NCBI GenBank assembly: GCA_963770835.1
Contig: CAVYRH010000002.1
Coordinates: 128,001 to 192,000, forward strand
DNA: 64,000 nt
From: an uncultured Pseudomonadota bacterium
GTDB lineage: Bacteria > Oederibacteriota > Muellerivitia > Muellerivitales > Muellerivitaceae
Reading direction: 5' to 3'
The position numbers were made by a program, and so were the translations under genes. Each line of letters opens with the position of its first letter. Position 1 is the first letter of the stretch. This document shows, in pieces, positions 42,191-62,555 of this stretch. Below the pieces are notes generated by a model, which was not told the origin of the DNA, searched no databases, and saw nothing but the letters and a program-made list of their open reading frames with translations.

Positions 42191-42265
<75 letters not shown>

Positions 42266-42288
42266 ATTTCAGGCTTTTCTGCGCTTTT

Positions 42289-43575
42289 TTAGTTCGCCAA
42301 GACCTGTGGCAAAGCTGTGGCAAACTCATTTTCGGTCTTTCCGTAGGACTTCTCCACCAGCTCCACCGCTTCCACCAGGTCGTTCTCCACCAAACCCACA
42401 TAATAATCTGTGGAGCGCCTGTCCCGGTGGCCGGCAAAGCGGCCAAGTATCCTATCCCCCACCCTTTGTAGGGCCAATCTGGTCAAGCAAAGGTGGCGGA
42501 GATCGTAAAAGCGGAGGCCTTTTTCCTTCAAATTCGGCATTGTCTGGGAAGTCAGGGCGATAGTTTTACCAAATAATCGCCTCATATTGCAAGTTTTTAA
42601 ACGCTTCCCGTCGACGGTAAACAAAAAATCCCCGGGCCCTTTACCCGTAACATTCCGTCTGACAATATCCTCAACCATCTTCAGAAGGGGGATAGTCCTT
42701 CCTTCCCCCGTCTTTCCAGGTTTAATGAAGACAAAGTACCTGTATCCCACGTACCGGTTATCCCGATCCTTAACTTCCTTCCTGGAAAAATCGCTGATTT
42801 GGATATCAAGGGCTTCCTGGACCCTCGTCCCCTGGTACAAGCGGAACAAGAACACATCCCGGAACAATGCCACCGGTATCCTATCCGGACGGGCTCCGTG
42901 TTGGTTTTGCTGTTCTTCCAGTTTGTCCATCGCGTCCAGCATCGCGGTTATTTCCTCATCCCTTACCGTTATCACGGGGCGCTTTGGAGGGGTCGGAAAA
43001 AATTTCGGGTTTGAATCAAGGATTTCACGGACGGGGTTTTCCCGGCCGATCTTTTTTCGAATCGCCCAACGGAACAACCGATCCAAATAGCCCTTGTATT
43101 CCAAAAGGTTCCACGCGTTCGTACAAACCTCGCGGTCCCTCTCGTCCCGCAACAGCTTCCGCCTGGCATTGAACCATTCCGAGACCCTTTTCACCGACAT
43201 CCGGCGGATTTCCAAATTCCCGAACTCCGCCTTCAGGAGATCAAGCTTCGGCTTGATATTCCTGGGGAAAGAAGGTTTCTCCCGGATATTCAACACGGGA
43301 TCGTCAAGATATTGTTCAACGACCTCCGAAAACTTCATGTTTCCGACTGGGACCCTGGTTGGGTCAAACCCGTCATTGAGCCGGGTTTGTAACTCGGCCC
43401 GCGCCCGCTCAAGCACGGCAGCTTTCTTGGCGGACAAATCCGGGTAGTCAACGACCGGAAAGCGGGTCGATTTGAAGCGAGCCCTGCCTTCCGGATCCAA
43501 CCAGTAGAAATACCAGTGGGGCCGCGGTTGTTTATCGCGGCCAATTCTTGTTTTAAGCTGGACGTTGATTGGCAT
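42289..43575 (-). CDS. Tyrosine recombinase/integrase
   Basis: N-terminal arm-binding-like WYFYW..GR; catalytic GTRVQE (R), KTG (K), YDLRH (YxxR), AGH, DYY (Y). Confidence 0.92.
   Translation of the reverse strand: MPINVQLKTRIGRDKQPRPHWYFYWLDPEGRARFKSTRFPVVDYPDLSAKKAAVLERARAELQTRLNDGFDPTRVPVGNMKFSEVVEQYLDDPVLNIREKPSFPRNIKPKLDLLKAEFGNLEIRRMSVKRVSEWFNARRKLLRDERDREVCTNAWNLLEYKGYLDRLFRWAIRKKIGRENPVREILDSNPKFFPTPPKRPVITVRDEEITAMLDAMDKLEEQQNQHGARPDRIPVALFRDVFLFRLYQGTRVQEALDIQISDFSRKEVKDRDNRYVGYRYFVFIKPGKTGEGRTIPLLKMVEDIVRRNVTGKGPGDFLFTVDGKRLKTCNMRRLFGKTIALTSQTMPNLKEKGLRFYDLRHLCLTRLALQRVGDRILGRFAGHRDRRSTDYYVGLVENDLVEAVELVEKSYGKTENEFATALPQVLAN
42304..42324. repeat. Tandem 10-bp direct repeat, candidate integrase arm-binding sites
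   Basis: CTGTGGCAAA-G-CTGTGGCAAA (11-bp period) about 40 bp from tRNA-Gly. Confidence 0.55.
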
Positions 43576-43858
43576 TTCTGCCTCCCTTCGCCCCAGCCTC
43601 CTGACCCCCTGATAATATCAAATCGATGGAATGTTGGGAACTTGGAACAGCCGGCATCCGTTGGATCGACCATTTAAGGGACCCGAAACTGATCCGTGGA
43701 TTCTTCCCAAAAAGATAACGCGCTTTCAACTTCCCGGATTTGACCCACCGGATGATGGTACGACGGGAAACACCGGCATACCCCGCCGCTTCCCCATAGG
43801 TCAGCATTCTTTCTTCCGAGTCCCTCCTGCGGTCCCCACCTTTTCTACGTTCTTCCAT
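43553..43858 (-). CDS. Excisionase-like HTH protein with N-terminal ERRKGGDRRRD motif
   Basis: MLTYGEAAGYAGVSRRTIIRWVKSGKLKA (HTH_17-like); overlaps the integrase start; RBS GAGGAGG. Confidence 0.8.
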   Translation of the reverse strand: MEERRKGGDRRRDSEERMLTYGEAAGYAGVSRRTIIRWVKSGKLKARYLFGKNPRISFGSLKWSIQRMPAVPSSQHSIDLILSGGQEAGAKGGRNANQRPA

Positions 43859-43868
43859 GGGGTCCTCC

Positions 43869-44090
43869 TCATCTCTTCGAATCAATTGAAGGATTTTGAA
43901 AAACCTTCAGGAATAAAGAATGCCAAACACGGGGGTGTCTCCCCACTTTCACAAAGGGGAGAACGCCGGCCTGCCGCCAATACCTGACCGTATTTGGGGA
44001 GACTTTCGCCAATTGGGCTACATCTCTATCAGTCATGAGGTAATCCCGGTCTTTGCTCCGGCGGCCCGGAGAATTCCTGCGGTTTTTCAT
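43869..44090 (-). CDS. Second excisionase/MerR-like HTH protein with N-terminal NRRNSPGRRSKD motif
   Basis: LMTDRDVAQLAKVSPNTVRYWRQAGVLPFVKVGRHPR; RBS GGAGG. Confidence 0.8.
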   Translation of the reverse strand: MKNRRNSPGRRSKDRDYLMTDRDVAQLAKVSPNTVRYWRQAGVLPFVKVGRHPRVWHSLFLKVFQNPSIDSKR

Positions 44091-44115
44091 AAAAACCTCC
44101 AGCCACAAGGGCCAA

Positions 44116-45123
44116 TCAGAATCCAATAAGCCTGTGAATCCCATCATGGGCAATATCGTTGGCCATGCTATTCAACATCCCGTCCAAGACCTTATTGAGA
44201 TCCACGTTGAAGTTGGTCAGGGATTTCTCCATTGAGCAGTTCAAATAAGCCAAGACATAGGTGGAAAGGGGCCCCTCAACATAAGCCTGGGCAATGGGCT
44301 GGCCGGTTTTCCTTTGGAACTCCAGACGGTCCTTGGTCAATATGTCGTAATCCGCCTTCAGGCAGGCCTTCTTGAATTCGCCCATGTGATAGTCGTTCTT
44401 GTCATCCCCTGACCCCCATTGGTTGATCCATCCTTGGCAGAGTTTCTTGACGTGGGTCACATAAGCATCGTCCTGATCCCCAGGGGTTTTAACCGGGTTA
44501 GGCCCAAGGTCCTTTCCCTTGCTTGCCTCCCAATCTTTTTGAATATCGTCCATCACGGAATGACGCACTTTATCGGCCATGCCGGAATTGGCACCGTCCA
44601 GAACTCCCTTGGGGTCCTTCAGTTCCTCATCCGTCAGGTGGACCATGAAAGGGGTATTCTTGTTTTCATCCGCGAAATTAGCCCGCCAATTGGCTAATTT
44701 GAGGGCTCCGGCGTAAGTCTCTACAGCATCCTTGTTGAGTTTGCCTTTGAACACCTCATCGCTAACTCGGTTGAAATCCTTTTGGAAAAATTCATCCTTG
44801 GCCTCGTCAAACAGACTATCCGGTACCCGGCCTCCGTAGGCTTTCCTCAACTTCTTTTCGAATCCTTCCAATCGGAAGTAGATTTCATTGGCCGACATCC
44901 TTTTGGCGGCCAGGTTCTCGTCCTGGTCCACACCCTTCTTTTTCCCCTCTTCCAAGCCCTCCGTAATTTGTTTCCGGATAACCCCAATGGCGTCTTTTTT
45001 TTCAAGGATTGTGGGTTCGTAAATTGAGGTTGGTTGGGTGTCGGTTTGAGCCCACCCCCTTAATACCCCCAAACTGAACACCGCCACAAATAATCCAATA
45101 GTAAAAACAGAAAAGTTACGCAT
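44116..45123 (-). CDS. Exported helical hypothetical protein
   Basis: Signal peptide (..GWA|QT), charged helical body. Confidence 0.7.
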   Translation of the reverse strand: MRNFSVFTIGLFVAVFSLGVLRGWAQTDTQPTSIYEPTILEKKDAIGVIRKQITEGLEEGKKKGVDQDENLAAKRMSANEIYFRLEGFEKKLRKAYGGRVPDSLFDEAKDEFFQKDFNRVSDEVFKGKLNKDAVETYAGALKLANWRANFADENKNTPFMVHLTDEELKDPKGVLDGANSGMADKVRHSVMDDIQKDWEASKGKDLGPNPVKTPGDQDDAYVTHVKKLCQGWINQWGSGDDKNDYHMGEFKKACLKADYDILTKDRLEFQRKTGQPIAQAYVEGPLSTYVLAYLNCSMEKSLTNFNVDLNKVLDGMLNSMANDIAHDGIHRLIGF

Positions 45124-45161
45124 ATCGCCTCCTAAAATATTGAGCTGGTTATAAAAATCAG

Positions 45162-45197
45162 GTTGGCGGCTTTCGACAATTCCTAAAAGCCGCCAAC
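45162..45197 (-). terminator. Hairpin after the spoVG-like gene (possible terminator)
   Basis: GTTGGCGGCTTT..AAAGCCGCCAAC. Confidence 0.5.
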
Positions 45198-45231
45198 GAA
45201 ATTGACCTACATATCTTGAAACCGACCGTCC

Positions 45232-45537
45232 TTATGAACCGGTCTGCACCTCCGCTTCCATGAGCTTCATCTTCTTGTTGAAGGAAGCGATTGCCGCCTT
45301 CTGGATTTCCTTCTTGGTTTGGGAGTCGGTGTAGGAATAATCGAAGTAGGCCCCTTCCTCCGTTCCCGGCTTGCTGGGATTGGCGCTGAATAACTCGCCG
45401 GTTTCCTTGTTCCTCACGAGCCTCATATCGTTGAACCCGAAAACCCTTTTCCCCAAGGTCACCTTGACGTCGAAAAAGGCCTTCACGTTGCCTTCTCCCT
45501 CATAGGGGTACATCCTTTTGATAATGATTCGAAACAT
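45232..45537 (-). CDS. SpoVG-like nucleic-acid-binding protein
   Basis: KAFFDV, DMRLV..GELFSANPSK..G.YFDY..TKKEIQKA matches the SpoVG pattern. Confidence 0.7.
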   Translation of the reverse strand: MFRIIIKRMYPYEGEGNVKAFFDVKVTLGKRVFGFNDMRLVRNKETGELFSANPSKPGTEEGAYFDYSYTDSQTKKEIQKAAIASFNKKMKLMEAEVQTGS

Positions 45538-45577
45538 GACTTTCCTCCTTGAAATAAATTCAGCTAAATAAACAGCG

Positions 45578-47030
45578 TTACATTCCTTGTGGTTTCACCC
45601 CCTTTTCGGTGTTCCTCGCGTATTCCAAAACCTCTTCCCGCGCTTTTTCGGACAAGCCAGCGGAATACTCCCACCAGTCTTTGGCCCCTTTTGGGGCCGC
45701 GTACTGGTGGAGCACTTCAAGCAGTTCCTTGGTGTAATGGACAGGCTTTTTCCCCTGAAAATGGACAATTCCCCGGAAAACAATCGCGTTTCGGCCAGTC
45801 GCTTTTGCGCCATACAAGCCGTCGTCAGCTGCCGTGACAAGAGTCTCCAGGTTCACCCCATCCTCCCCCCACTCCACAATGGCCTGGGAAATAGTGACGG
45901 GGTAATGGATCACGTAAAGGTCATCCTTTTTGTGGCCCGTTCCATCCGTAAAATGCCGGATGTTCTCGGCCTTGATGATCTCATTGGCCTCCGCCACCAC
46001 CTTCTCCTCGACGTATTTGCGGAATTCCCCCGCTTTCTCCAGGGCTTCTTTTTCATCCCCGTCCAGGATCCAAATGACCTCCTCGCCCCCATACCGCCAA
46101 ATTCGTTCCTTGGAAAAGATCCCCTGGCCCGCCTTGGCTAATGTTCTCAAGACGGCGTTCCCCACTTGGTGGTTGGAATGCACATCATTGAAACTTTTGA
46201 AATAGTCGATATCGGCCATGCAAAGGTAAATCTTGGCTTTCTTCTTGGCGGCATAGGCGGGAATCTGGTTTCTCGCCGCGCGGAAGTTCAAAAGGCCCGT
46301 GAGGTCATCCATCACAGTTTGCTTGACGAGGTTTTCCTTTGTGGTTTTGTCCTGGCAATCCGCCGCTGTATCCAGGATGAAAGGGAACATTTGGGCCAAG
46401 AGCCATTTGCCAGGCTTTGTTTTCCTCAATTTCCCCAAGGTTGCTCTCTTTTCCAGTTTTTGGGCCTTCTCCAGCAAGGCCTTGATCCTCGGGTCTTTCA
46501 TCCCCGCATCCCTCAAAACGGAACAAACGTGGACCGTCCAGTGGAATTTCCCCAGTGAGAAATAAGCCGAAGCCAAAAGAACCAGGTACTCGGGTTCCTT
46601 GGGGAACCTCATATTCAGGCTTTGGAGCATCTCAACCGCCGTCTCGGCCCTGCCGGTCAGGGTGAAAAGTTCCGCTTGCAGGGCCACCGCTTCGGGGAAA
46701 TCCCGCACAGCCTCGAAAATTTCCTTGAGCGTGGTTTCGCATTCGGCGTATTGGGCCTTCAAAAGATAGGCTTTCGCCAGCAGAACCCGGCTTTCGGATG
46801 ACGGGTGGGAAAAGTTATGTAGCCTTTCGATGACCTTGAGGATGGAATTAGGTTTATTTAATTTGGCGTAGATCTTCCCGGCTTCCAGATAGGCTTCCAC
46901 GTTGTGGGGCTGGTAGGAGTGGATCACCTCGTCAAAAAATGGAAAGGGCCTTCCGGTACGATTTGGCCTTCATGTAGAGATGCGCGGCCTGGAGGCTTTG
47001 GCGGGCCAATTCGGGATTGAGAGTTTCCAT
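45578..47030 (-). CDS. TPR-repeat diguanylate cyclase (GGEEV); homopolymer frameshift near 46935
   Basis: TPR helices, then DDLTGLLN, DIDYFKSFND..HQVGN, RYGGEEV, ADDGLY.AK..GRN; true start probably METLNPELAR at 47030. Confidence 0.88.
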
Positions 47031-47031
47031 G

Positions 47032-47619
47032 TCAAAACTCCTGGAAGTTTGATATTTGCAGGGTTCCGTTGTCGTCTTTCACCACGACCAAAAGGTTCAT
47101 GGGCAGCTCCAATTGGGAGGGAGGATTGGTGTTGTCGGAGTTGTAGATGCTTTTCCCGATGACCTTGACCCAATAATGGGTTCCATCGGAATTGACGACA
47201 CTGGAGCGGTCGATCCTCTGGTAGATGACGTAGGCCTTGGACTGCCTAATGAATTCCACCCATTTGGGGTCCAGGAACGCCTCGCTATATTGGGACATGA
47301 GGTTGTCCACCATGAGGCCGGATACTTTGTCCGTCTGGCGGTCGATGTCCGTGTAGCTCAGGTTGAAGGCCATGATGGAGAACTTCTCGGCAAAATCGAT
47401 GACCCCGGTGTCTTGGGTCGCCGTTTCAACCGCCTGAAAGTCCTTGTTCTCCTGGGGGTGGGTTACAACAGCGCCAATCCTCGCCTTACCCCACCAAAGG
47501 GTGAAAAGGATCCCGGATAGGGTGATGGCCACAACCAATAGGATCATCGGCCATGCCTTATTGCCCTTGCGTTCTTCCTCCACCTCATCCAAAAAATTCA
47601 TTTCCTTTTTCTCATTCAT
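47032..47619 (-). CDS. Bitopic VirB8-like conjugation protein
   Basis: Single TM, then FAEKF..FNLSY and an NTF2-like beta C-terminus; follows VirB4. Confidence 0.5.
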   Translation of the reverse strand: MNEKKEMNFLDEVEEERKGNKAWPMILLVVAITLSGILFTLWWGKARIGAVVTHPQENKDFQAVETATQDTGVIDFAEKFSIMAFNLSYTDIDRQTDKVSGLMVDNLMSQYSEAFLDPKWVEFIRQSKAYVIYQRIDRSSVVNSDGTHYWVKVIGKSIYNSDNTNPPSQLELPMNLLVVVKDDNGTLQISNFQEF

Positions 47620-47646: not shown

Positions 47647-50139
47647 TCAGCCGGCTTTCATTACCTTGTTGTTTTCCTTGTCGTCGATCCATTGGCAGAT
47701 GGCGGATAGGACTTTTTCAGGGTCCTCATCCTTGGCGTAGGCCTCCAAATACCGGTCCCTGACCGCCGCCTCGGGGCCATAGGTGGTGGCGATGTGGTAG
47801 GAGAGTTCATCGGGATAAATGTTGACGATCCCCTGGCGGTGGGTCTGGTGGATCATGGCCTGGGAATAGACCCCTTTGACCTGGTGGAGGCCCGAAACCA
47901 TGTCCATCTGGGTTGGATTGAGTTGAAGGAGGTTTTTGGCGTGGCGGACATCGTCCCCGACGAGTTTCAACAGAATCTTAGTGGCGGTATTCTTGAGGAT
48001 GGCTTCCACCCCCTTAACCCCATTGAATTCCCCGATTTCCTGGGTAGCGAAGATGGGTTGGAGCCTCAGGTGCCGGGCCGTTTTCGCGATCCTCAAAAGG
48101 AAGGAAAGACCAGTGGGGAATTGGGCCAAATGCCAAGCTTCGTCAAGGACCAGTTGGGAGAGACGGTTCAAACCCATATTTTCCTTGGCTTTTCTCAAGC
48201 AGTAGTTGGAGATGACGAAAACGGCTAGGCCAATGGCCTTCTTGTCGTTGTCACTAATGCCGGAGGTATCGAATACAGTGAAATTGTCGTCCCCCTCAAC
48301 GGTGGATTCCCGGTCAGTCAGGTTGGCGTAGATTCCTTTTCCCGTATAGAGCTTCAGGATTTCAGCCTGCTTGCGGCATATATATTGGAACTGGACAGGC
48401 GTCTTTTTCTCTTCCGACATCCTTATCAATGTTTCCTTGAGGTCCGAGAGAAGGGGAACCCGGTTTTGGGATATGACGTTCCGGTAAGTCGTCTTTATCG
48501 CTTCCTGAAGCAAGGCCTTGTCCAGTTCCTCCGCTTCCTCGATTGAGTTGCCCTTGACGTTGGCAAGCACGACCCCCAAGAACATGATGATGCTGGAGAT
48601 TTGGTCGGGGTCGATTTCGCCGTCCAATTCCTTTATTTCATCCAAGGGATAATCAAAGATGTTCAGGTGGTGGCGGCTGTCCAGGTCGTAATTGAGGTAC
48701 TTGCCCCCGGACAAAAGGCAGAGAGTTTTGTACGATTTCGATTTGTCGATGACCATCACGTAGGGGTTCAGGTGCCTGTTTCGGATCAAGAGCTGGTTGA
48801 TGGTGAAGGATTTGCCGGTACCCGAACTTCCCACCACCAGGAAGTTCCAGTTTTCCGCCTCCTTTCCCCACAAGTCCAAATGGACCATCTGGTTGGAAAG
48901 GGTTTTCCCGATGGGCACACCGTCCGTTTCGGCGATGGGCTCGTATAAAACAGGAATCGCGTTGGCGATAACGGCCGTGGCTTGCAGGTGCTCGTGGGAA
49001 GCGTAATCGGTGGCCTGGGGCGTGGTGGAAAGGAAAAGCCTCTTTTGTTCCGCGTAACCAGACAAGGGGTGGACGTTCTTGAACTTCCGGGCCAGGTTCT
49101 CGTAAATCGTCAGGAGGGATTCTTTTGTGTCCGCGAACAAGGTCACGTAAAGGGAAAACTTGGCAAGGGAGGTCTTCTTCTCCGAGACCATGGACAACAC
49201 TTCCTGGCGGTAATCCAGGTTGGCCTGGGCCTCGAAATTGACCACGTTTTTGCGCTTCCAAAGGGCCCCCTGGTCGGCCTGGATTTGGCGCTCAACCACC
49301 CCCTGGGCCCGGAACAAATCCACCCCTTTCACGAACAAGGAAACCTTGAAATCATCCGTTTCCCCGTAAAGTTCCTGGAAGAAAAGGCTTTGTTCGTTGA
49401 AAGACGGGAATTCGGTCACGTAGAGGGTCTTGGCCAACTTGTCCCCAATCTTGAAAAAATGGGGGTTGGTGAAATCCCAGGGGACCGTGGAGAGCATTTC
49501 CCGGAGTGTCTGGAACCCGAATTCCCCACCCGACATGGAAATACCCCGTTTGAAAAGGGACGGATTCCCGTGGAATTTCCTAAGCGAGAATTCCTCATAT
49601 AAGAGGGTGTAAATCTCCTCCTCACTAGCCTCTTCCAGTTCCATCCCCAAGAGTGATAGCTGGGAAGCCCAGGATTTGGCCCTCCTCAATACCTCCTCAA
49701 GGGGTCCAAAGGACCCCTTTTCATCTTTTGCGGGATTTGAAGGAATTACGGTGAACAGGACATACGAAAGAAAGCGGCAAATACGGTGGTCCTTGTAAAA
49801 CAGCCGCAAGGAGTTTTCCAGGAACCGGGGATACTGGTTTTTGAAGATCGTCGGCGCGTTTTCGTGGATATGGCCCTTGAACTTATCGATTCCCACCTCA
49901 ACATCCGCAGGGACCCTTTTGGTGAGGAACTGGACTTGCTCGTCTTTCCGCAAGTCCCCCAAAGCTGAGTTCAATTTCATCACTTTCTCGCCCAATACCT
50001 CCGGGTCTTCCATCCAGGGATTGAGCCCGCCTTCAACCTTGAATACGGCCACGAACTGGCGGGGGTTCCTCAAAACAAGGAATCCCGGGCCAACCGATGA
50101 AATCCTCAAGAGTTCGGGAATGACGTTTTTCATGTTCAA
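47647..50139 (-). CDS. virB4: VirB4/TraC-family T4SS ATPase
   Basis: 830 aa; NWNFLVVGSSGTGKS, IDKSKSY, LVLDEAWH, ARH..IFATQ. Confidence 0.9.
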   Translation of the reverse strand: MNMKNVIPELLRISSVGPGFLVLRNPRQFVAVFKVEGGLNPWMEDPEVLGEKVMKLNSALGDLRKDEQVQFLTKRVPADVEVGIDKFKGHIHENAPTIFKNQYPRFLENSLRLFYKDHRICRFLSYVLFTVIPSNPAKDEKGSFGPLEEVLRRAKSWASQLSLLGMELEEASEEEIYTLLYEEFSLRKFHGNPSLFKRGISMSGGEFGFQTLREMLSTVPWDFTNPHFFKIGDKLAKTLYVTEFPSFNEQSLFFQELYGETDDFKVSLFVKGVDLFRAQGVVERQIQADQGALWKRKNVVNFEAQANLDYRQEVLSMVSEKKTSLAKFSLYVTLFADTKESLLTIYENLARKFKNVHPLSGYAEQKRLFLSTTPQATDYASHEHLQATAVIANAIPVLYEPIAETDGVPIGKTLSNQMVHLDLWGKEAENWNFLVVGSSGTGKSFTINQLLIRNRHLNPYVMVIDKSKSYKTLCLLSGGKYLNYDLDSRHHLNIFDYPLDEIKELDGEIDPDQISSIIMFLGVVLANVKGNSIEEAEELDKALLQEAIKTTYRNVISQNRVPLLSDLKETLIRMSEEKKTPVQFQYICRKQAEILKLYTGKGIYANLTDRESTVEGDDNFTVFDTSGISDNDKKAIGLAVFVISNYCLRKAKENMGLNRLSQLVLDEAWHLAQFPTGLSFLLRIAKTARHLRLQPIFATQEIGEFNGVKGVEAILKNTATKILLKLVGDDVRHAKNLLQLNPTQMDMVSGLHQVKGVYSQAMIHQTHRQGIVNIYPDELSYHIATTYGPEAAVRDRYLEAYAKDEDPEKVLSAICQWIDDKENNKVMKAG

Positions 50140-50420
50140 ACCTCGCTTTCTTCCCCGCCACTGTTGTAATACCGTGGTTCCCGGTGGAACCGGACGATGT
50201 TCTCGAAATGTTTCTCAGGCCAGAAACTCTTCAAAACGTAAAAAACGGTGGCCACAACTAAAGCCGAGAAGAATAGAACCAGGCTCCCTTCTAGGCCCCA
50301 AACACTGAAAAGCAATATGAACCCGAAGGCGTCGGCGATGAAGATGAACATCAAGCGAGTGAAGTCCGAGGCATAGAACAAGCCCCACATCCTGGATTCC
50401 TTCTCAAGTGGGATTGCCAT
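50136..50420 (-). CDS. VirB3/PrgI-like small membrane protein
   Basis: Two TM segments, basic C-terminus (..PRYY); overlaps the virB4 start. Confidence 0.6.
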   Translation of the reverse strand: MAIPLEKESRMWGLFYASDFTRLMFIFIADAFGFILLFSVWGLEGSLVLFFSALVVATVFYVLKSFWPEKHFENIVRFHREPRYYNSGGEESEV

Positions 50421-52326
50421 CGCCGCCCCTCCTTTCCTTGCCCATGCCCCTGACCGTGGGCGGAGGCCCGCCCCTTTGAAGGCGTTTGGCGTAGGAGCCG
50501 ATCAAGCGCCGCTTCTCCATTTCCTCCTTGGAGAAATCCCCCTTGCTCCTGGTGAATTCCTTGTCCATTCCCTTGGAGATGCTGTCCCCGGCGAATTTCC
50601 GCACCAAACCTGAGACGGGGTTGTCCGTTCCTTCCCCGCCCCGGTCGCGGCCTCCGATTCCCCCAACGTTTCCGATCATGTTGAGGCCCTTGACGAATCG
50701 CCCCCCGGCCACGGCTCCGGCTGTGGTTCCGACAAAAGGGATGATGGAACCCACCGCCGCCCCCGCCGCCGTCCCCACCGCCTGCCCTGTTTCACCCGTC
50801 GCGGCCTTGATGCCCCCGGCGGTCTTGAGCCTAGCCGCGTTCATGGCCCCCATCGCGGCCAGGTTGTCCCTTGCGAAATCCTTGATTCCGTCCCCCCGTA
50901 AGTTCCCTCCTTGGAAGGTGGTGAAAAGGGAGGCGAACTCCTGGACATTGGCGATCATCTGGAGCCCCGCGATAACCGCGCAGGCGGTTAAGAGGCTGTT
51001 CACCCCGATGGTTTCGATCCCCCAATCGATGTTGGGAATGAGGTAAAGCCCTACCAGGGTGATGGCCCAAAAGACGGAATATAGGAGTTGTTTTACGAAG
51101 TACCGGAGAGCCCCCCAGAAAATGGGGGCGGTCGCTGGGTGCCCCAGGCAACCGATAAAAGCGGGCCCCAGGAGGAACAGGACCCAGAGATTCAAGACTT
51201 GGAAAAACTTCGCAAAAATGACAGAAAAACAGACGATTAAACCCCAGAGAGCGGCCCCGCATTTGAGTAAGCCCCCTCCAAACTTGGCGATGCGGCTCTC
51301 ATCCTGCGGCTGGTTGCCTGCCGTTGCGAGATTGGGGCCTGATGATGCCTGTTGGGGCGGGTATTGGACGCCGTTGTTACCCATCAACCCTTGGACCGAA
51401 TAAGGAACCAGTGTTTCCCCGGATATGGCCGGGGTGCTTCCCACCGTGTCGGCCCCTCTCGCCAAAAGGACGTGGACAAGGGTGGGGACGCTCAAAATCA
51501 GGATGATCCCGGAAACCGCCTGGATGAATTTGTAATTGCCGCTTTTGGAGTCCCCTGCCGCCACCGCCGAGTAACAGTTGTAAAAACCCAGGATGACCAG
51601 GGAAAGGGAAACGAGGAAGAAAAAGTCCCAGATAATCCCCTGGGTTTTGATGAAGTTCCCCCGAAAGTCGATCTGGTTCACCTGAACCGCACTCAAGCCT
51701 GAAGGCCCGCCCAAGTTGATGTCGGCGAACCCTTCCAGGACCCCGCTGGTTTTGAGGGTATTTTGGTTGTAGAGGTAGTACCCCAAAGCTGTCACACCGT
51801 TGGTCAAAAGGGAATGGATGAAAGGCCAGGCGAAGATGGCGGTGAAAGCGCCCACAAAGACAAGGACCATCGAGGGCTCAACCGGCCTCCCCCAAAACCC
51901 TGAGGAGCGCTGGCCCACGTCCACCAGGAAAAAAACAAGGAGAAGATAGAGCCCGAAGCCGCTGGTTATCTTGAGCAGGTTCAAAACCTCGGCCACGGCT
52001 AGGGAGGCCTCACCGGCCATCCCCGGTTGTTTGGACATGGCGGTGTAGGTGATAGGCGAGGCCAAATCCGGAATCTTGATGAGGAATGTCCCAATGTACT
52101 TGTCGTATACGTCGAAGAGGGTTTGAAGGGCCCAATTGCCTAGGCTGTCCATTCCGTTGGCGACCCAATCCGCCGCGTTCTTGGCGACGGTTTCCACGAT
52201 TCCTTGGGATACCCCCTGCTGGATGGCGCCTTCCGAAGGGCCGCTATCGGTCGAGAGGACCGTAACGGCGCCCGCGCCCGGCGCCACCATCAGGGTCAAA
52301 CCCGCTATATATAAAAGCTTCTTCAT
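50404..52326 (-). CDS. VirB6/TrbL-like polytopic membrane protein
   Basis: Many TMs, LFLLGPAFIGCLGHPAT..FWG motif, Gly/Ala-rich C-tail. Confidence 0.65.
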   Translation of the reverse strand: MKKLLYIAGLTLMVAPGAGAVTVLSTDSGPSEGAIQQGVSQGIVETVAKNAADWVANGMDSLGNWALQTLFDVYDKYIGTFLIKIPDLASPITYTAMSKQPGMAGEASLAVAEVLNLLKITSGFGLYLLLVFFLVDVGQRSSGFWGRPVEPSMVLVFVGAFTAIFAWPFIHSLLTNGVTALGYYLYNQNTLKTSGVLEGFADINLGGPSGLSAVQVNQIDFRGNFIKTQGIIWDFFFLVSLSLVILGFYNCYSAVAAGDSKSGNYKFIQAVSGIILILSVPTLVHVLLARGADTVGSTPAISGETLVPYSVQGLMGNNGVQYPPQQASSGPNLATAGNQPQDESRIAKFGGGLLKCGAALWGLIVCFSVIFAKFFQVLNLWVLFLLGPAFIGCLGHPATAPIFWGALRYFVKQLLYSVFWAITLVGLYLIPNIDWGIETIGVNSLLTACAVIAGLQMIANVQEFASLFTTFQGGNLRGDGIKDFARDNLAAMGAMNAARLKTAGGIKAATGETGQAVGTAAGAAVGSIIPFVGTTAGAVAGGRFVKGLNMIGNVGGIGGRDRGGEGTDNPVSGLVRKFAGDSISKGMDKEFTRSKGDFSKEEMEKRRLIGSYAKRLQRGGPPPTVRGMGKERRGGDGNPT

Positions 52327-52389
52327 ATGAAACCTTCCAAATATCAAACTGCTTTAAGGGGGATATGCCCCCGTTCACTTCATAAACCG

Positions 52390-52749
52390 TCAATTACCCG
52401 CCAACACCGAGGAAACCGGACGAGCCCCGAATTCCCCGGCTTTCAGGATGAGGACGTTCACCACCACCCCCACCATGAGAATCCCCACGAAAGCCAGGAC
52501 CGAGTTCCATACCCTGTCCTTGGCCGTCGTGTCCCCCTTGCTGGAATCCGCCAGGTGGTCGAAAACGTTCTTGATGCAGCCGAACAATTTCCAGAGCCCG
52601 TAGGCGTCCAGGACGAAAAGGATCAGCGTCTTGACCGGCGAAAGCTCCGGGATGCTGACCACGGCTTGGGCGAAGGCTGCCTCGGCCTCCAAAAAGATCC
52701 AAAGCGCCAAAACCACCCTTTTCTTCCCCTTAAATATTTCTTTCTTCAT
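52390..52749 (-). CDS. VirB2/TrbC-like pilin
   Basis: Signal ending AAFA|Q, then two hydrophobic helices separated by KGD..AK. Confidence 0.6.
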   Translation of the reverse strand: MKKEIFKGKKRVVLALWIFLEAEAAFAQAVVSIPELSPVKTLILFVLDAYGLWKLFGCIKNVFDHLADSSKGDTTAKDRVWNSVLAFVGILMVGVVVNVLILKAGEFGARPVSSVLAGN

Positions 52750-52785
52750 ATCGAACCTCCGAAATAAAACATCAATACACATTCC

Positions 52786-58419: not shown

Positions 58420-59097
58420 TTACCTCACTGGTACCGGATGCGCATCAAAGGATATATTCTTTTTTGGCCGTCCTGGCTTCTTGTACGGACGCCAATCCAA
58501 GGCCGTTGGGTTGAAGGGCGCAAACCAGTAATAGGTAATAGAGCCGGGGGCCTTTAATGTCCTTGTGTATTGCAAGTAATGGTTCCGGTGCCTGAACTTT
58601 AATACTTCCATGATCCACTTGCGCCCCTTGCCCTTTCGATGGGCCCATAAAAGGAAGCTGGCTTTAATCATCTTATAAGGGAATCCGGTTTTCCAGAGAT
58701 CGTTCAGGGCCTTGCTTTGCATTAATGTTATTTTTGGTCCGAATCCCCTTTTGTTCCAGAAGCGAAAAAACCTGTGGCCGAAAGGTTCCTGGGGGTGCCT
58801 TTCCTTGATTTTTTGCCAGGTGTACCTCCAACCTATTGATTTCCCTTTCCCGAACAACTTGCAAAAGTACCAATAAACGTTGTTCCTGTGGGCATTCATT
58901 GCCTTGGCGCTTCGGGCTAGGTTTCCTTCGTGGAGGGCAAACCATGTCATGTGATGGTGGAAGCGGAATACCTCGGGAGGGTTGCCGGCTTCCCATAGGG
59001 TGTTTAGGGTTTCTAAACCCTTTCTCAAATCCTTAAGAGAGTAGACGGGTTCAAAGACTGCATCCTTTAGTTTAAAAGGTCTTTTACGGGTGGTCAT
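58420..59097 (-). CDS. Basic DNA-binding-like protein with two internal Fis-like HTH repeats (paralogue A)
   Basis: EGNLARSAKAMNAHRNNV; LW.TGFPYK; C-terminal KKPGRPKK. Confidence 0.6.
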   Translation of the reverse strand: MTTRKRPFKLKDAVFEPVYSLKDLRKGLETLNTLWEAGNPPEVFRFHHHMTWFALHEGNLARSAKAMNAHRNNVYWYFCKLFGKGKSIGWRYTWQKIKERHPQEPFGHRFFRFWNKRGFGPKITLMQSKALNDLWKTGFPYKMIKASFLLWAHRKGKGRKWIMEVLKFRHRNHYLQYTRTLKAPGSITYYWFAPFNPTALDWRPYKKPGRPKKNISFDAHPVPVR

Positions 59098-59237
59098 GAT
59101 GGGGCCTAGTTTTTTTACACTCTCGGCCCTTAAAGCGGGCTAGGCATGACGAAAATTTCATAAGGCCGGAGAAACTACCCAAGAACTCAAAAAAAGAATA
59201 CCGCTCGTAACTCTCGGGCTTTGGGTGAAATATTTTT

Positions 59238-59882
59238 TCATTTTTCAATCCTCGGCCTTCCCTTCATTCCCTTAGGATACCAATCCCCTATCGAAGGATT
59301 AAGCGGTTGGAGCCATTTCCAGGCCGGGGAACCCCTTTTGACAGCGGCAAAACGAATACGGTGGAGTGTCCGCAAATTGAATCTCAGCCGTTTTATAACC
59401 TCATCCCAACCCATTCCCCTCCTGAAAGACCAAAGAACATAATGCGACCTCAAAAGTTTGTAAGGAAACCCAGTCAGCCAAAAATCCACCAGGACCCGGT
59501 TTTCGGGAATGTTCAATCGCGGGCGTCCACCAGCGAATTTATATAATTCCAAAACCATTAAAGGGAAGGGCCAGACCGGCTTCTTTTTGCATAAGGAATT
59601 CCATTTGGCCCTGAACCGGTAGGTCTTGGGCGTTCCCACCAAAGCCTTGAAGACATATAAAATTTTGTTACGGTGGAATCCAGTGATCCGGGCCATAGCA
59701 GTCACGTAGCCATTAGTCTGGGCGAACCATGTGAAGTAAAAATGGAATTTTAAATCCTTGGGGGTGAGTCCCTTCGACCAAAGCCGGTCTAAAACCTTAA
59801 AGCCGTTTCTTAAAGCCCCGCCCTTCCCTTTGCGGTTATCCATTTCGACAAAAGGGATATTGTTCCACATCCTCTTACTCAA
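59238..59882 (-). CDS. Paralogue B of 58420-59097
   Basis: Shares TWFA, HRN, TGFPYK, P.NP...DW.P and GRP motifs. Confidence 0.6.
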   Translation of the reverse strand: MSKRMWNNIPFVEMDNRKGKGGALRNGFKVLDRLWSKGLTPKDLKFHFYFTWFAQTNGYVTAMARITGFHRNKILYVFKALVGTPKTYRFRAKWNSLCKKKPVWPFPLMVLELYKFAGGRPRLNIPENRVLVDFWLTGFPYKLLRSHYVLWSFRRGMGWDEVIKRLRFNLRTLHRIRFAAVKRGSPAWKWLQPLNPSIGDWYPKGMKGRPRIEK

Positions 59883-62044: not shown

Positions 62045-62466
62045 TCAGGCCGCCGCCTTCTCCAATTTGGTTTTAAAAATAAAGTCCATCGCGGCCTGGG
62101 CCTTTGCCGCCGCTGACAAAATGGCCCGCTTGTCATCCTTCAAGACCCGAATCCAATCCCCGATGTAATCAGAGTGCTGGGTGGCATAGGGGATTCCGAC
62201 CGAGGCGCAAAGGAAAGCCGCCCCCATTTCCGCCACCAGTTCCTCGAAAGCGTAGGCCCTGTCCCCGAAACGCTTCCCGTTTTCCCGGTCCAGGCGGCTC
62301 CCGTGGCCGGTCCAATGATGTTGATTCCCCGGTAGGGTTTCCTCGTGCTGGCGTTGACGGGAAGGGGAAGCCCCCTTCCCTCCCCCCAGGGCTTCTCCCA
62401 AGGGGCGACACCCCGCCCCAAATCCCCCAAAACCCTGCTGGTGATTTCCTCCGCAATGTTCCTCAT
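62045..62466 (-). pseudogene. ardC: ArdC-family antirestriction/ssDNA-binding gene with internal deletion
   Basis: N-terminal PWEKPW..P.NASTRKPYRGIN joined out of frame to C-terminal HWTGH..RLDR..YAFEELVAEMGAAFL..YI..W...L. Confidence 0.8.
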
Positions 62467-62555
62467 TTCTTTTCCTCCCATCTGTGCCCCGGCTACTAGC
62501 TGGGGCAAACGGTTTGATTGTGCCGGGCCTCAAACAAAGGCCCGGCTTAAGTTCC

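Follow-up and report, generated by a model that had tools for sequence, protein, structure and literature searches.

A conserved arginine-pair arm on excisionase-like proteins of transfer-linked integrative elements, and its possible link to cyclic dinucleotides

We analysed a 64,000-nucleotide (nt) stretch of DNA from an uncultured bacterium (the window). It contains the right end of an integrated element of ~32 kb that lies between duplicated half-copies of tRNA-Gly. One copy of the attachment site (att) is in the window, and the second, with one mismatch, is on the same contig outside it (G000:C2:202171-202212). On the minus strand the genes follow in the order pilin-like, virB6, virB3-like, virB4, virB8-like, TPR-GGDEF, spoVG-like, a 335-amino-acid (aa) orphan, xisA, xisB, integrase and tRNA, and the stop of xisB lies within the start of the integrase gene. 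As in an integrative and conjugative element (ICE), there are an integrase, duplicated att sites and a channel of the VirB4 type. An earlier note on this DNA had proposed that cyclic di-GMP (c-di-GMP) made by the element's own TPR-GGEEV cyclase acts on two excisionases through short N-terminal extensions with paired arginines, which we call arms. The genes were found as it described them: two helix-turn-helix (HTH) proteins with Arg-pair arms lie directly before the integrase, and the cyclase gene belongs to the same gene run. We report that the arm is conserved and follows transfer-linked elements, not the cyclase. The features are as follows.

42191..42265, minus strand: tRNA-Gly(GCC), the integration target (ARAGORN)
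42229..42270, no strand: att core, 42 bp over the 5' half of tRNA-Gly (blastn against the own genome)
42289..43575, minus strand: tyrosine integrase, type B, 428 aa (Pfam Phage_integrase, E 5e-11)
43553..43858, minus strand: XisB, HTH_17 excisionase-like protein, 101 aa, partner of integrase B (HTH_17 and TIGR01764 over cut-off)
43826..43852, minus strand: Arg-pair arm of XisB, E-RR-KGG-D-RR (sequence; AGGAGG 5 nt before the ATG)
43869..44090, minus strand: XisA, HTH_17 protein, 73 aa (HTH_17 over cut-off)
44049..44084, minus strand: Arg-pair arm of XisA, N-RR-NSP-G-RR-SKD (sequence, alignment)
44116..45123, minus strand: 335-aa orphan, variable cargo (no Pfam match; no hit in related loci)
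45232..45537, minus strand: SpoVG-like nucleic-acid-binding protein (Pfam SpoVG, E 6e-4, below cut-off; synteny)
45578..47030, minus strand: TPR-GGEEV protein (GGDEF, E 4e-17; TPR_19, E 3e-11)
47032..47619, minus strand: VirB8-like transfer protein (size, membrane anchor, position; weak IcmL/DotI match, NCBIfam E 0.05; synteny)
47647..50139, minus strand: VirB4 transfer ATPase (Pfam P-loop_TraG, E 7e-23; NCBIfam TraC/VirB4)
50136..52782, minus strand: VirB3-like, VirB6/TrbL and pilin-like genes (Pfam TrbL, E 3e-7; synteny)

The labels VirB3, pilin and VirB8 were given mainly on size and position.

The xisB gene runs from an ATG at 43858 to a stop at 43553, and its product begins MEERRKGGDRRRD; xisA runs from 44090 to 43869, with the N-terminus MKNRRNSPGRRSKD. 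The two proteins score 30.4 and 33.4 bits against Pfam HTH_17 (cut-off 27). Against TIGR01764, XisB reaches 33.1, over the cut-off of 28.8, and XisA 23.4, below it. Both ATGs have AGGAGG or GGAGG 5 nt upstream, and the in-frame ATG behind the arm has no such ribosome-binding site at a normal distance. The arms are thus probably translated, which speaks against their lying upstream of the true starts, a refuting case named in the earlier note. A purine-rich site precedes 64/64 starts, a count that is partly circular because the starts were chosen by that score. Both window arms are atypical of their family; in XisA the consensus acidic residues are replaced by N and G, and XisB has no strict RxxxR. 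AlphaFold models the arm (residues 1-10) as a low-confidence coil, with a mean predicted local distance difference test score (pLDDT) of 49, on a BldC/Xis-like core, and the closest solved relative of XisA is BldC (E 6e-4). Foldseek returned no match for the XisA model at E up to 0.001, an arm peptide had no hit among PDB sequences, and the ESM Atlas returned generic HTH_17 and GGDEF clusters only.

We found the arm in most of the top-ranking homologues. A profile search gave 305 homologues, and 111 of the best 120 match [DEN]RRx2-4[DE]RR, 105 with a spacer of two; the remaining 9 have a degenerate form. Because the search profiles contained the arm, this count and the set of 68 matches described below are biased towards armed proteins. 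With the cyclase family as bait we recovered 21 close metagenome loci, 4 of which end before the xis position; all 17 that reach it (13 distinct sequences) have an armed xis. The conservation that the earlier note had asked to see is therefore present, and its motif has to be corrected. Both window arms are Arg-paired as it said, but its pattern RRxxx[DG]RR occurs in only 3 of 54 distinct arms and the RxxD it pointed to in 35. The family consensus, as read from the sequences, is [DE]RRxx[DE]RR: RRxx[DE]RR is found in 38/54, RRxxD in 33/54 and RRxx[DE] in 45/54. D or E precedes both RR pairs in most of the 54, and in the second (anchored) repeat it does so in 106/117 among the best 120 of the 305 homologues. 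An acidic residue before each RR would be odd for a plain DNA-binding tail.

The distance from arm to HTH varies (2, 4, 6 or 14 residues), as does the spacer, which suggests an autonomous linear motif. The arm is kept across HTH cores down to 44% identity, and it occurs in both HTH lineages, XisA and XisB being ~25% identical. Armless and armed cores are 70-76% identical, so the arm is not needed for the fold. The pattern [DEN]RRx2-4[DE]RR was absent from the first 30 residues of all 3,844 host open reading frames (ORFs) of at least 100 aa. Two RR pairs before the HTH were found in 0/60 other HTH rows of the phylum, which came from 70 loci out of 352 matches to HTH_17, and in 0/43 viral HTH rows. 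Among the best 150 representatives of 50% clusters it occurs in 6, all XisA-type. Viral contigs held no cyclase relative, and their HTH relatives are distant and armless; a plasmid collection held no XisA match, and its VirB4 matches reach only about 25%. Two tiny basic host ORFs of 60 and 51 aa (G000:C10:145298-145480, plus strand; G000:C8:172144-172299, minus strand) have purine-rich upstream sites and several [DEN]RR repeats, and are possible candidates for free-standing versions of the arm.

We surveyed 99 genomes from across the phylum. With the XisA profile there were 68 matches, spread over 23 genomes; the cyclase had 25 in 12, and the relaxase-like family at least 80 in 22. Each XisA match was classified by a cyclase within 3.5 kb upstream, a relaxase-like gene within 3 kb, or neither. 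Behind a cyclase, 16 are armed and 1 is frameshifted. Of the matches that follow a relaxase-like gene and lack a cyclase inside 3.5 kb, 29 are armed, 2 are degenerate and 1 has a broken start. The matches with neither neighbour comprise 9 armed, 1 degenerate and 9 armless; the armed ones are mostly at contig ends or in apparent remnants, and the armless ones are intact genes in islands with no transfer gene in the 6-12 kb read (4.3 kb on one contig). Thus, the arm tracks transfer-linked elements, and these are of two complementary kinds: one has a mating channel and the TPR-GGDEF gene, usually without relaxase or coupling protein, and the other has a coupling protein and a relaxase-like gene without a channel. 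The earlier note had named co-occurrence with a GGDEF gene as a check. Strict co-occurrence of arm and cyclase was rejected, both by the 29 arms without a cyclase and by cyclases with no armed excisionase in the DNA read at 13 of 14 distant loci (below).

The relaxase label is tentative, as one of three queries matches the MobC model at E 2.5e-4, far below the cut-off; the gene adjoins a clear coupling-protein gene. The flanks of 11 cyclase elements were read: in 3 of them a coupling-protein/relaxase cassette follows the integrase closely, and in the others no such cassette was present in the DNA seen. We found no single transfer protein encoded by both kinds of element. Satellite elements in pairs of ICEs and integrative and mobilizable elements (IMEs) have their own Int/Xis and relaxase and borrow the channel of another element (PMC5812530, partial text). 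Unlike in such pairs, relaxase and coupling protein are here usually missing from the channel-bearing element itself, and the same armed excisionase is common to both kinds. The host itself has two more armed XisA-integrase A pairs (G000:C1:7057-7335 and G000:C10:70000-70287), one behind a relaxase-like gene, and several coupling-protein/relaxase cassettes on contigs C1, C5, C9, C12 and C19. At another locus (L025:14210-15013) an island adjoining an armed cyclase element contains two XisA paralogues that are armless or degenerate.

The window has two xis genes, whereas a single xis precedes the integrase in every related cyclase element examined. The usual relative is an XisA of 91-97 aa (about 91) coupled to integrase A; in four places an XisB is coupled to integrase B. 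These 4 XisB relatives all precede integrase B and all have an Arg-pair arm, and integrase B has close relatives in 2 other genomes of the 99. Up to residue 69 window XisA shares 68% identity with its nearest relative; beyond that point it diverges and ends at residue 73 (versus 97), exactly where the xisB-intB block begins. Given this border and the single xis of the relatives, the two genes appear to be the product of an exchange of modules in which a clipped xisA stayed behind. The notion of two excisionases built for one purpose was rejected on the same grounds, which counts against the circuit of the earlier note. The clipped XisA may still work, since RdfS tolerates the loss of its C-terminal tail.

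We then compared the 44-member cyclase family with PleD. It shares with PleD the GGDEF fold and the catalytic residues: metal-binding D239, K244, the sugar-edge N247 and GGEE are invariant (44/44) and the general-base Glu is kept. The fifth signature residue is I, L, M or V, not F, and no member has an RxxD inhibitory site. The guanine-site Asp and the cross-dimer Arg of PleD are not shared. The guanine-reading site (PleD D344) holds Asn in 44/44, and the cross-dimer Arg site holds Asp in 43 and Phe in one, the window copy. These two positions are the guanine determinants, with Ser/Thr described only alongside GGDE[FY], and the cross-dimer Arg is present in 94% of predicted cyclases (PMC6456294, partial text); two further sources agree on D344 as the guanine-reading residue (PMC9140294 and PMC12943098, partial texts). 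Since both guanine-selecting residues are replaced, the enzyme may not make c-di-GMP. Hypr GGDEF enzymes (GacA, Bd0367), according to the partial text available, have the cross-dimer Arg replaced in most cases, as in the window family, but they have Ser/Thr at the base-reading site with GGDE[FY], where the window family has Asn with GGEE. Asn, which equals Asp in size, might pair with either guanine or adenine. The predicted product is doubtful: c-di-GMP, cyclic GMP-AMP (cGAMP), cyclic di-AMP (c-di-AMP) and no activity are all possible. No paper describing the Asn/GGEE combination was found in a search whose coverage lacked most subscription journals.

The model of the protein has a confident TPR and GGDEF fold (mean pLDDT 84). 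The window copy of the gene is split in a run of six T near 46934: the ATG at 47030 is followed by 32 codons and a stop, and the remainder is in another frame. The window open frame has 449 aa, versus 482-491 for 33/34 full-length relatives, and contigs of two soil runs have one base fewer near 46934. The frameshift (window 46927-47030) may be an assembly error, a slippage switch or decay of this copy. A pattern match gave 13 GGDEF proteins in the host; the canonical Asp is present in 12 of them, and one has the same Asn/Phe signature. The latter is chromosomal (G000:C7:119926-121212) and has an intact RxxD site; its neighbour is a glycosyltransferase that we take to resemble glycogen synthase.

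The position of the TPR-GGDEF gene is fixed. In 20/24 close VirB4 places the cyclase is directly behind the virB8-like gene; 3 others are at a contig edge and 1 is a fragment outside the comparison. We read 14 of 21 distant VirB4 places (23-34% identity), and 13 of them, one in the host itself, have a TPR-GGDEF gene in the same position. Among these 13, 5 have a degenerate signature, 3 are fully canonical and 0 have the inhibitory site. Within 25 stretches around distant VirB4 places, partially covered, there was no HTH-profile, integrase A/B or motif match. From these positions the TPR-GGDEF gene looks like a core part of the transfer system, and the cyclase is seen to follow the channel, not the arm. 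A further 15 distant GGDEF loci (L030-L044) lay outside this analysis. The distant TPR-GGDEF gene is often followed by a small SpoVG-like ORF (G000:C12:261-14460, that is L244, and L245-L259). Cyclases of SXT/R391 ICEs and genomic islands (DgcK, DgcL, Dgc137) are likewise GGDEF genes on integrative elements, and are described as cargo altering biofilm and motility (PMC10672970, partial text). Unlike these, the GGDEF gene here has a fixed transfer-operon place across the phylum.

Other parts of the element are summarized here. The att target is the 5' half of tRNA-Gly(GCC), not the more usual 3' end, and the same Gly-Cys site lies behind integrase B at two other loci (L045 and L046). Metagenome-assembled genomes of candidate division FCPU426 hold the nearest named integrase relatives, and the host's own family has similar integrases too, which suggests FCPU426 as the host lineage. 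In related loci the SpoVG-like gene has one or two copies, always between cyclase and xis; the first of two such paralogues (L002:8956-9327, L012, L014, L045) has an ERRxxxR tail with PilZ-switch-like spacing. An ICE would also encode its own relaxase and coupling protein. We searched contig C2 by tblastn with two relaxase-like and two coupling-protein queries and found neither kind of gene, although dissimilar families could escape; the same queries gave several matches elsewhere in the host genome. The left arm of the element (L001:1891-11786, outside the window; window 62045-62508) contains what we presume to be insertion sequence (IS)-like transposases, two reverse-transcriptase ORFs and toxin-antitoxin-like pairs. 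A split ArdC-like gene also lies in the left part, and because of it and of the IS and reverse-transcriptase ORFs the window copy looks partly decayed. Two tandem paralogous ORFs of 225 and 214 aa (window 58420-59882) have no Pfam family, and ORFs resembling them stand behind relaxase-like genes at other places in the host. No excision or empty-site joint was present in contigs from four soil runs, though contigs cannot show absence, and a promoter and terminator scan gave a result not above chance. The hosts appear to be uncultured.

What could the arm do? The proteins that bear it resemble RdfS of Mesorhizobium ICEMlSymR7A, mycobacteriophage Xis and BldC, small MerR-like HTH proteins; as with the recombination directionality factors among these, their genes lie beside a tyrosine integrase at a tRNA att. 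PilZ proteins offer a partial likeness: RxxxR is in the arm (first 22 residues) of 114/120 among the best 120 of the 305 homologues, but the armed proteins lack (D/N)xSxxG and the beta-barrel, their domain being an HTH. The BldD-type site is RxD-x8-RxxD, two motifs eight residues apart; the arm, with its spacing of 2-4, does not have it. The closest likeness is to the arginine-rich region of Caulobacter CleA-E and to the CSP peptide. CleD binds an intercalated c-di-GMP dimer by DRR and (R/K)RxxD, and its peptide is unstructured until bound (PMC7382256, PMC5677366, partial texts). The Cle peptide, like the arm, is short and terminal and has tandem [DE][RK]R; it is unstructured and can be grafted. 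Its DRR and RRxxD half-sites have possible counterparts in most arms, though window XisA has N and G in place of the acidic residues. It is the only linear c-di-GMP-binding peptide in the literature we read. The arm is N-terminal on a DNA-binding domain, the Cle region C-terminal on a receiver domain. Without CleD's spacer and tyrosines, the arm is not a member of the Cle family.

We tentatively favour, at somewhat less than an even chance, the reading that the arm is an unstructured cyclic-dinucleotide-binding peptide, likeliest for c-di-GMP, on a BldC/Xis-type excisionase, and that it reads the cell-wide pool and activates excision. The five-residue repeat would supply CleD's two half-sites as RRxx[DE] and [DE]RR sharing one acidic residue. 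Arms of two Xis molecules would clamp one ligand dimer, the halves being supplied in trans, and the clamped arms would help Xis to assemble head-to-tail on att DNA. High cyclic-dinucleotide levels (upon surface contact, or with the transfer operon on) would thus increase excision, so that elements of the channel type and of the relaxase type would exit the chromosome at the same time. The TPR-GGDEF protein would be, in the first place, a component of the transfer operon. Activation is preferred over inhibition because xis and int overlap and are co-expressed, so that Xis would need a brake. A wider scheme is fairly unlikely: the excisionase family binds a cyclic dinucleotide, the two-part conjugation system excises in step, and a GGDEF enzyme of altered specificity (Asn/GGEE, possibly cGAMP or c-di-AMP) supplies or tunes the signal.

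Several observations weigh against the reading we favour. The half-sites of the arm are 2-4 residues apart, not 11 as in CleD, and in reversed order; it has no [YF]xGP or tyrosine stacking and almost no aromatics, and RxxD is missing from the other 19 of the 54 arms. Armless xis genes also overlap their integrase, which weakens the argument from a brake. The adjacent GGDEF enzyme lacks guanine-selecting residues. The motif was not found in host signalling proteins: the credible cases in a six-frame scan are Xis proteins, one IstB-like ATPase and the two tiny basic ORFs. Gains and losses could not be counted on a tree of 62 HTH-core columns, whose resolution is too poor, and related proteins are not independent cases. 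Finally, the N-terminal extension of RdfS is essential for excision without any ligand (PMC11963761, partial text).

This last observation leads to a ligand-free arm, which we regard as possible but somewhat unlikely. The arm would zip Xis oligomers through Arg-Asp/Glu salt bridges, or grip att DNA or an RNA hairpin, and so strengthen excision or transcriptional control; Arg-rich RNA-binding arms are known in phage antiterminators. BldC oligomerises on DNA, and the arm's failure to track the cyclase fits too. Excision and transfer by RdfS require an additional helix at its N-terminus, which promotes oligomerisation, and the C-terminal tail is dispensable (PMC11963761, partial text). Unlike that helix, the extension here is an Arg/Asp repeat modelled as coil, with Gly or Pro often in the spacer. 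The variable distance to the HTH, the nine intact close relatives without an arm, and conserved acidic residues that would be unfavourable beside DNA also speak against it. The arm might instead be a docking or degradation signal for a partner (coupling protein, relaxase, a TPR domain in trans or a protease adaptor) that couples Xis to a ready transfer apparatus. The proportion of armed proteins, 45/49 behind a cyclase or relaxase-like gene versus 9/19 elsewhere, argues for such a role, a terminal position modelled as unstructured would suit a docking motif, and TPR domains are frequent binders of short peptides. However, the two kinds of element share no transfer protein, and armed excisionases occur in 8 genomes without a TPR-GGEE match for this query, the assemblies being incomplete; we consider docking distinctly unlikely.

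The circuit of the earlier note, in which the element's own enzyme makes c-di-GMP that its two excisionases read, is improbable. In its favour, gene order does not vary within the clade (virB4, virB8-like, cyclase, spoVG, armed xis, int), the cyclase is in place behind virB8 at most close loci, and the enzyme keeps its GGEE and metal ligands and lacks an inhibitory site. Against this stand the failed co-occurrence of arm and cyclase, the Asn and Asp/Phe at the guanine-selecting sites, the single xis of related elements and the frameshift in the window copy. The note's reading is supported in part: the arm is conserved and unusual and resembles the CleD peptide. A circuit with the element's own cyclase is not supported. 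It is very improbable indeed that the arm arose neutrally, as a by-product of, say, translation signals rich in purines. AGG AGG does encode Arg-Arg, and is found so once in xisB, but the four Arg positions between them make use of every one of the six Arg codons, CGN being dominant at three of these positions, and the arm persists in the most divergent cores. Shuffled arms match the pattern 0.5 times on average versus 50/54 observed, the arms having been preselected for two RR pairs. A misreading of the ribosome-binding site as arm was rejected on start sites and codon usage.

Taken together, these sequence comparisons show the arm to be a real, conserved feature on a known kind of protein; a second-messenger role for it is plausible. 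In the literature searched, with most subscription journals outside coverage, we found neither a ligand-binding excisionase nor a description of the arm motif. If the reading of the arm as a cyclic-dinucleotide-binding peptide is true, site-specific excision would be under direct second-messenger control at the directionality factor, helper and satellite elements would have a way to act in step with no transcription activator in common, and the known ligand-binding motifs would gain a very short one. Regardless of the arm, a TPR-GGDEF gene fixed behind virB8 across the phylum and the invariant Asn/GGEE signature are leads on the control of conjugation and on GGDEF specificity.

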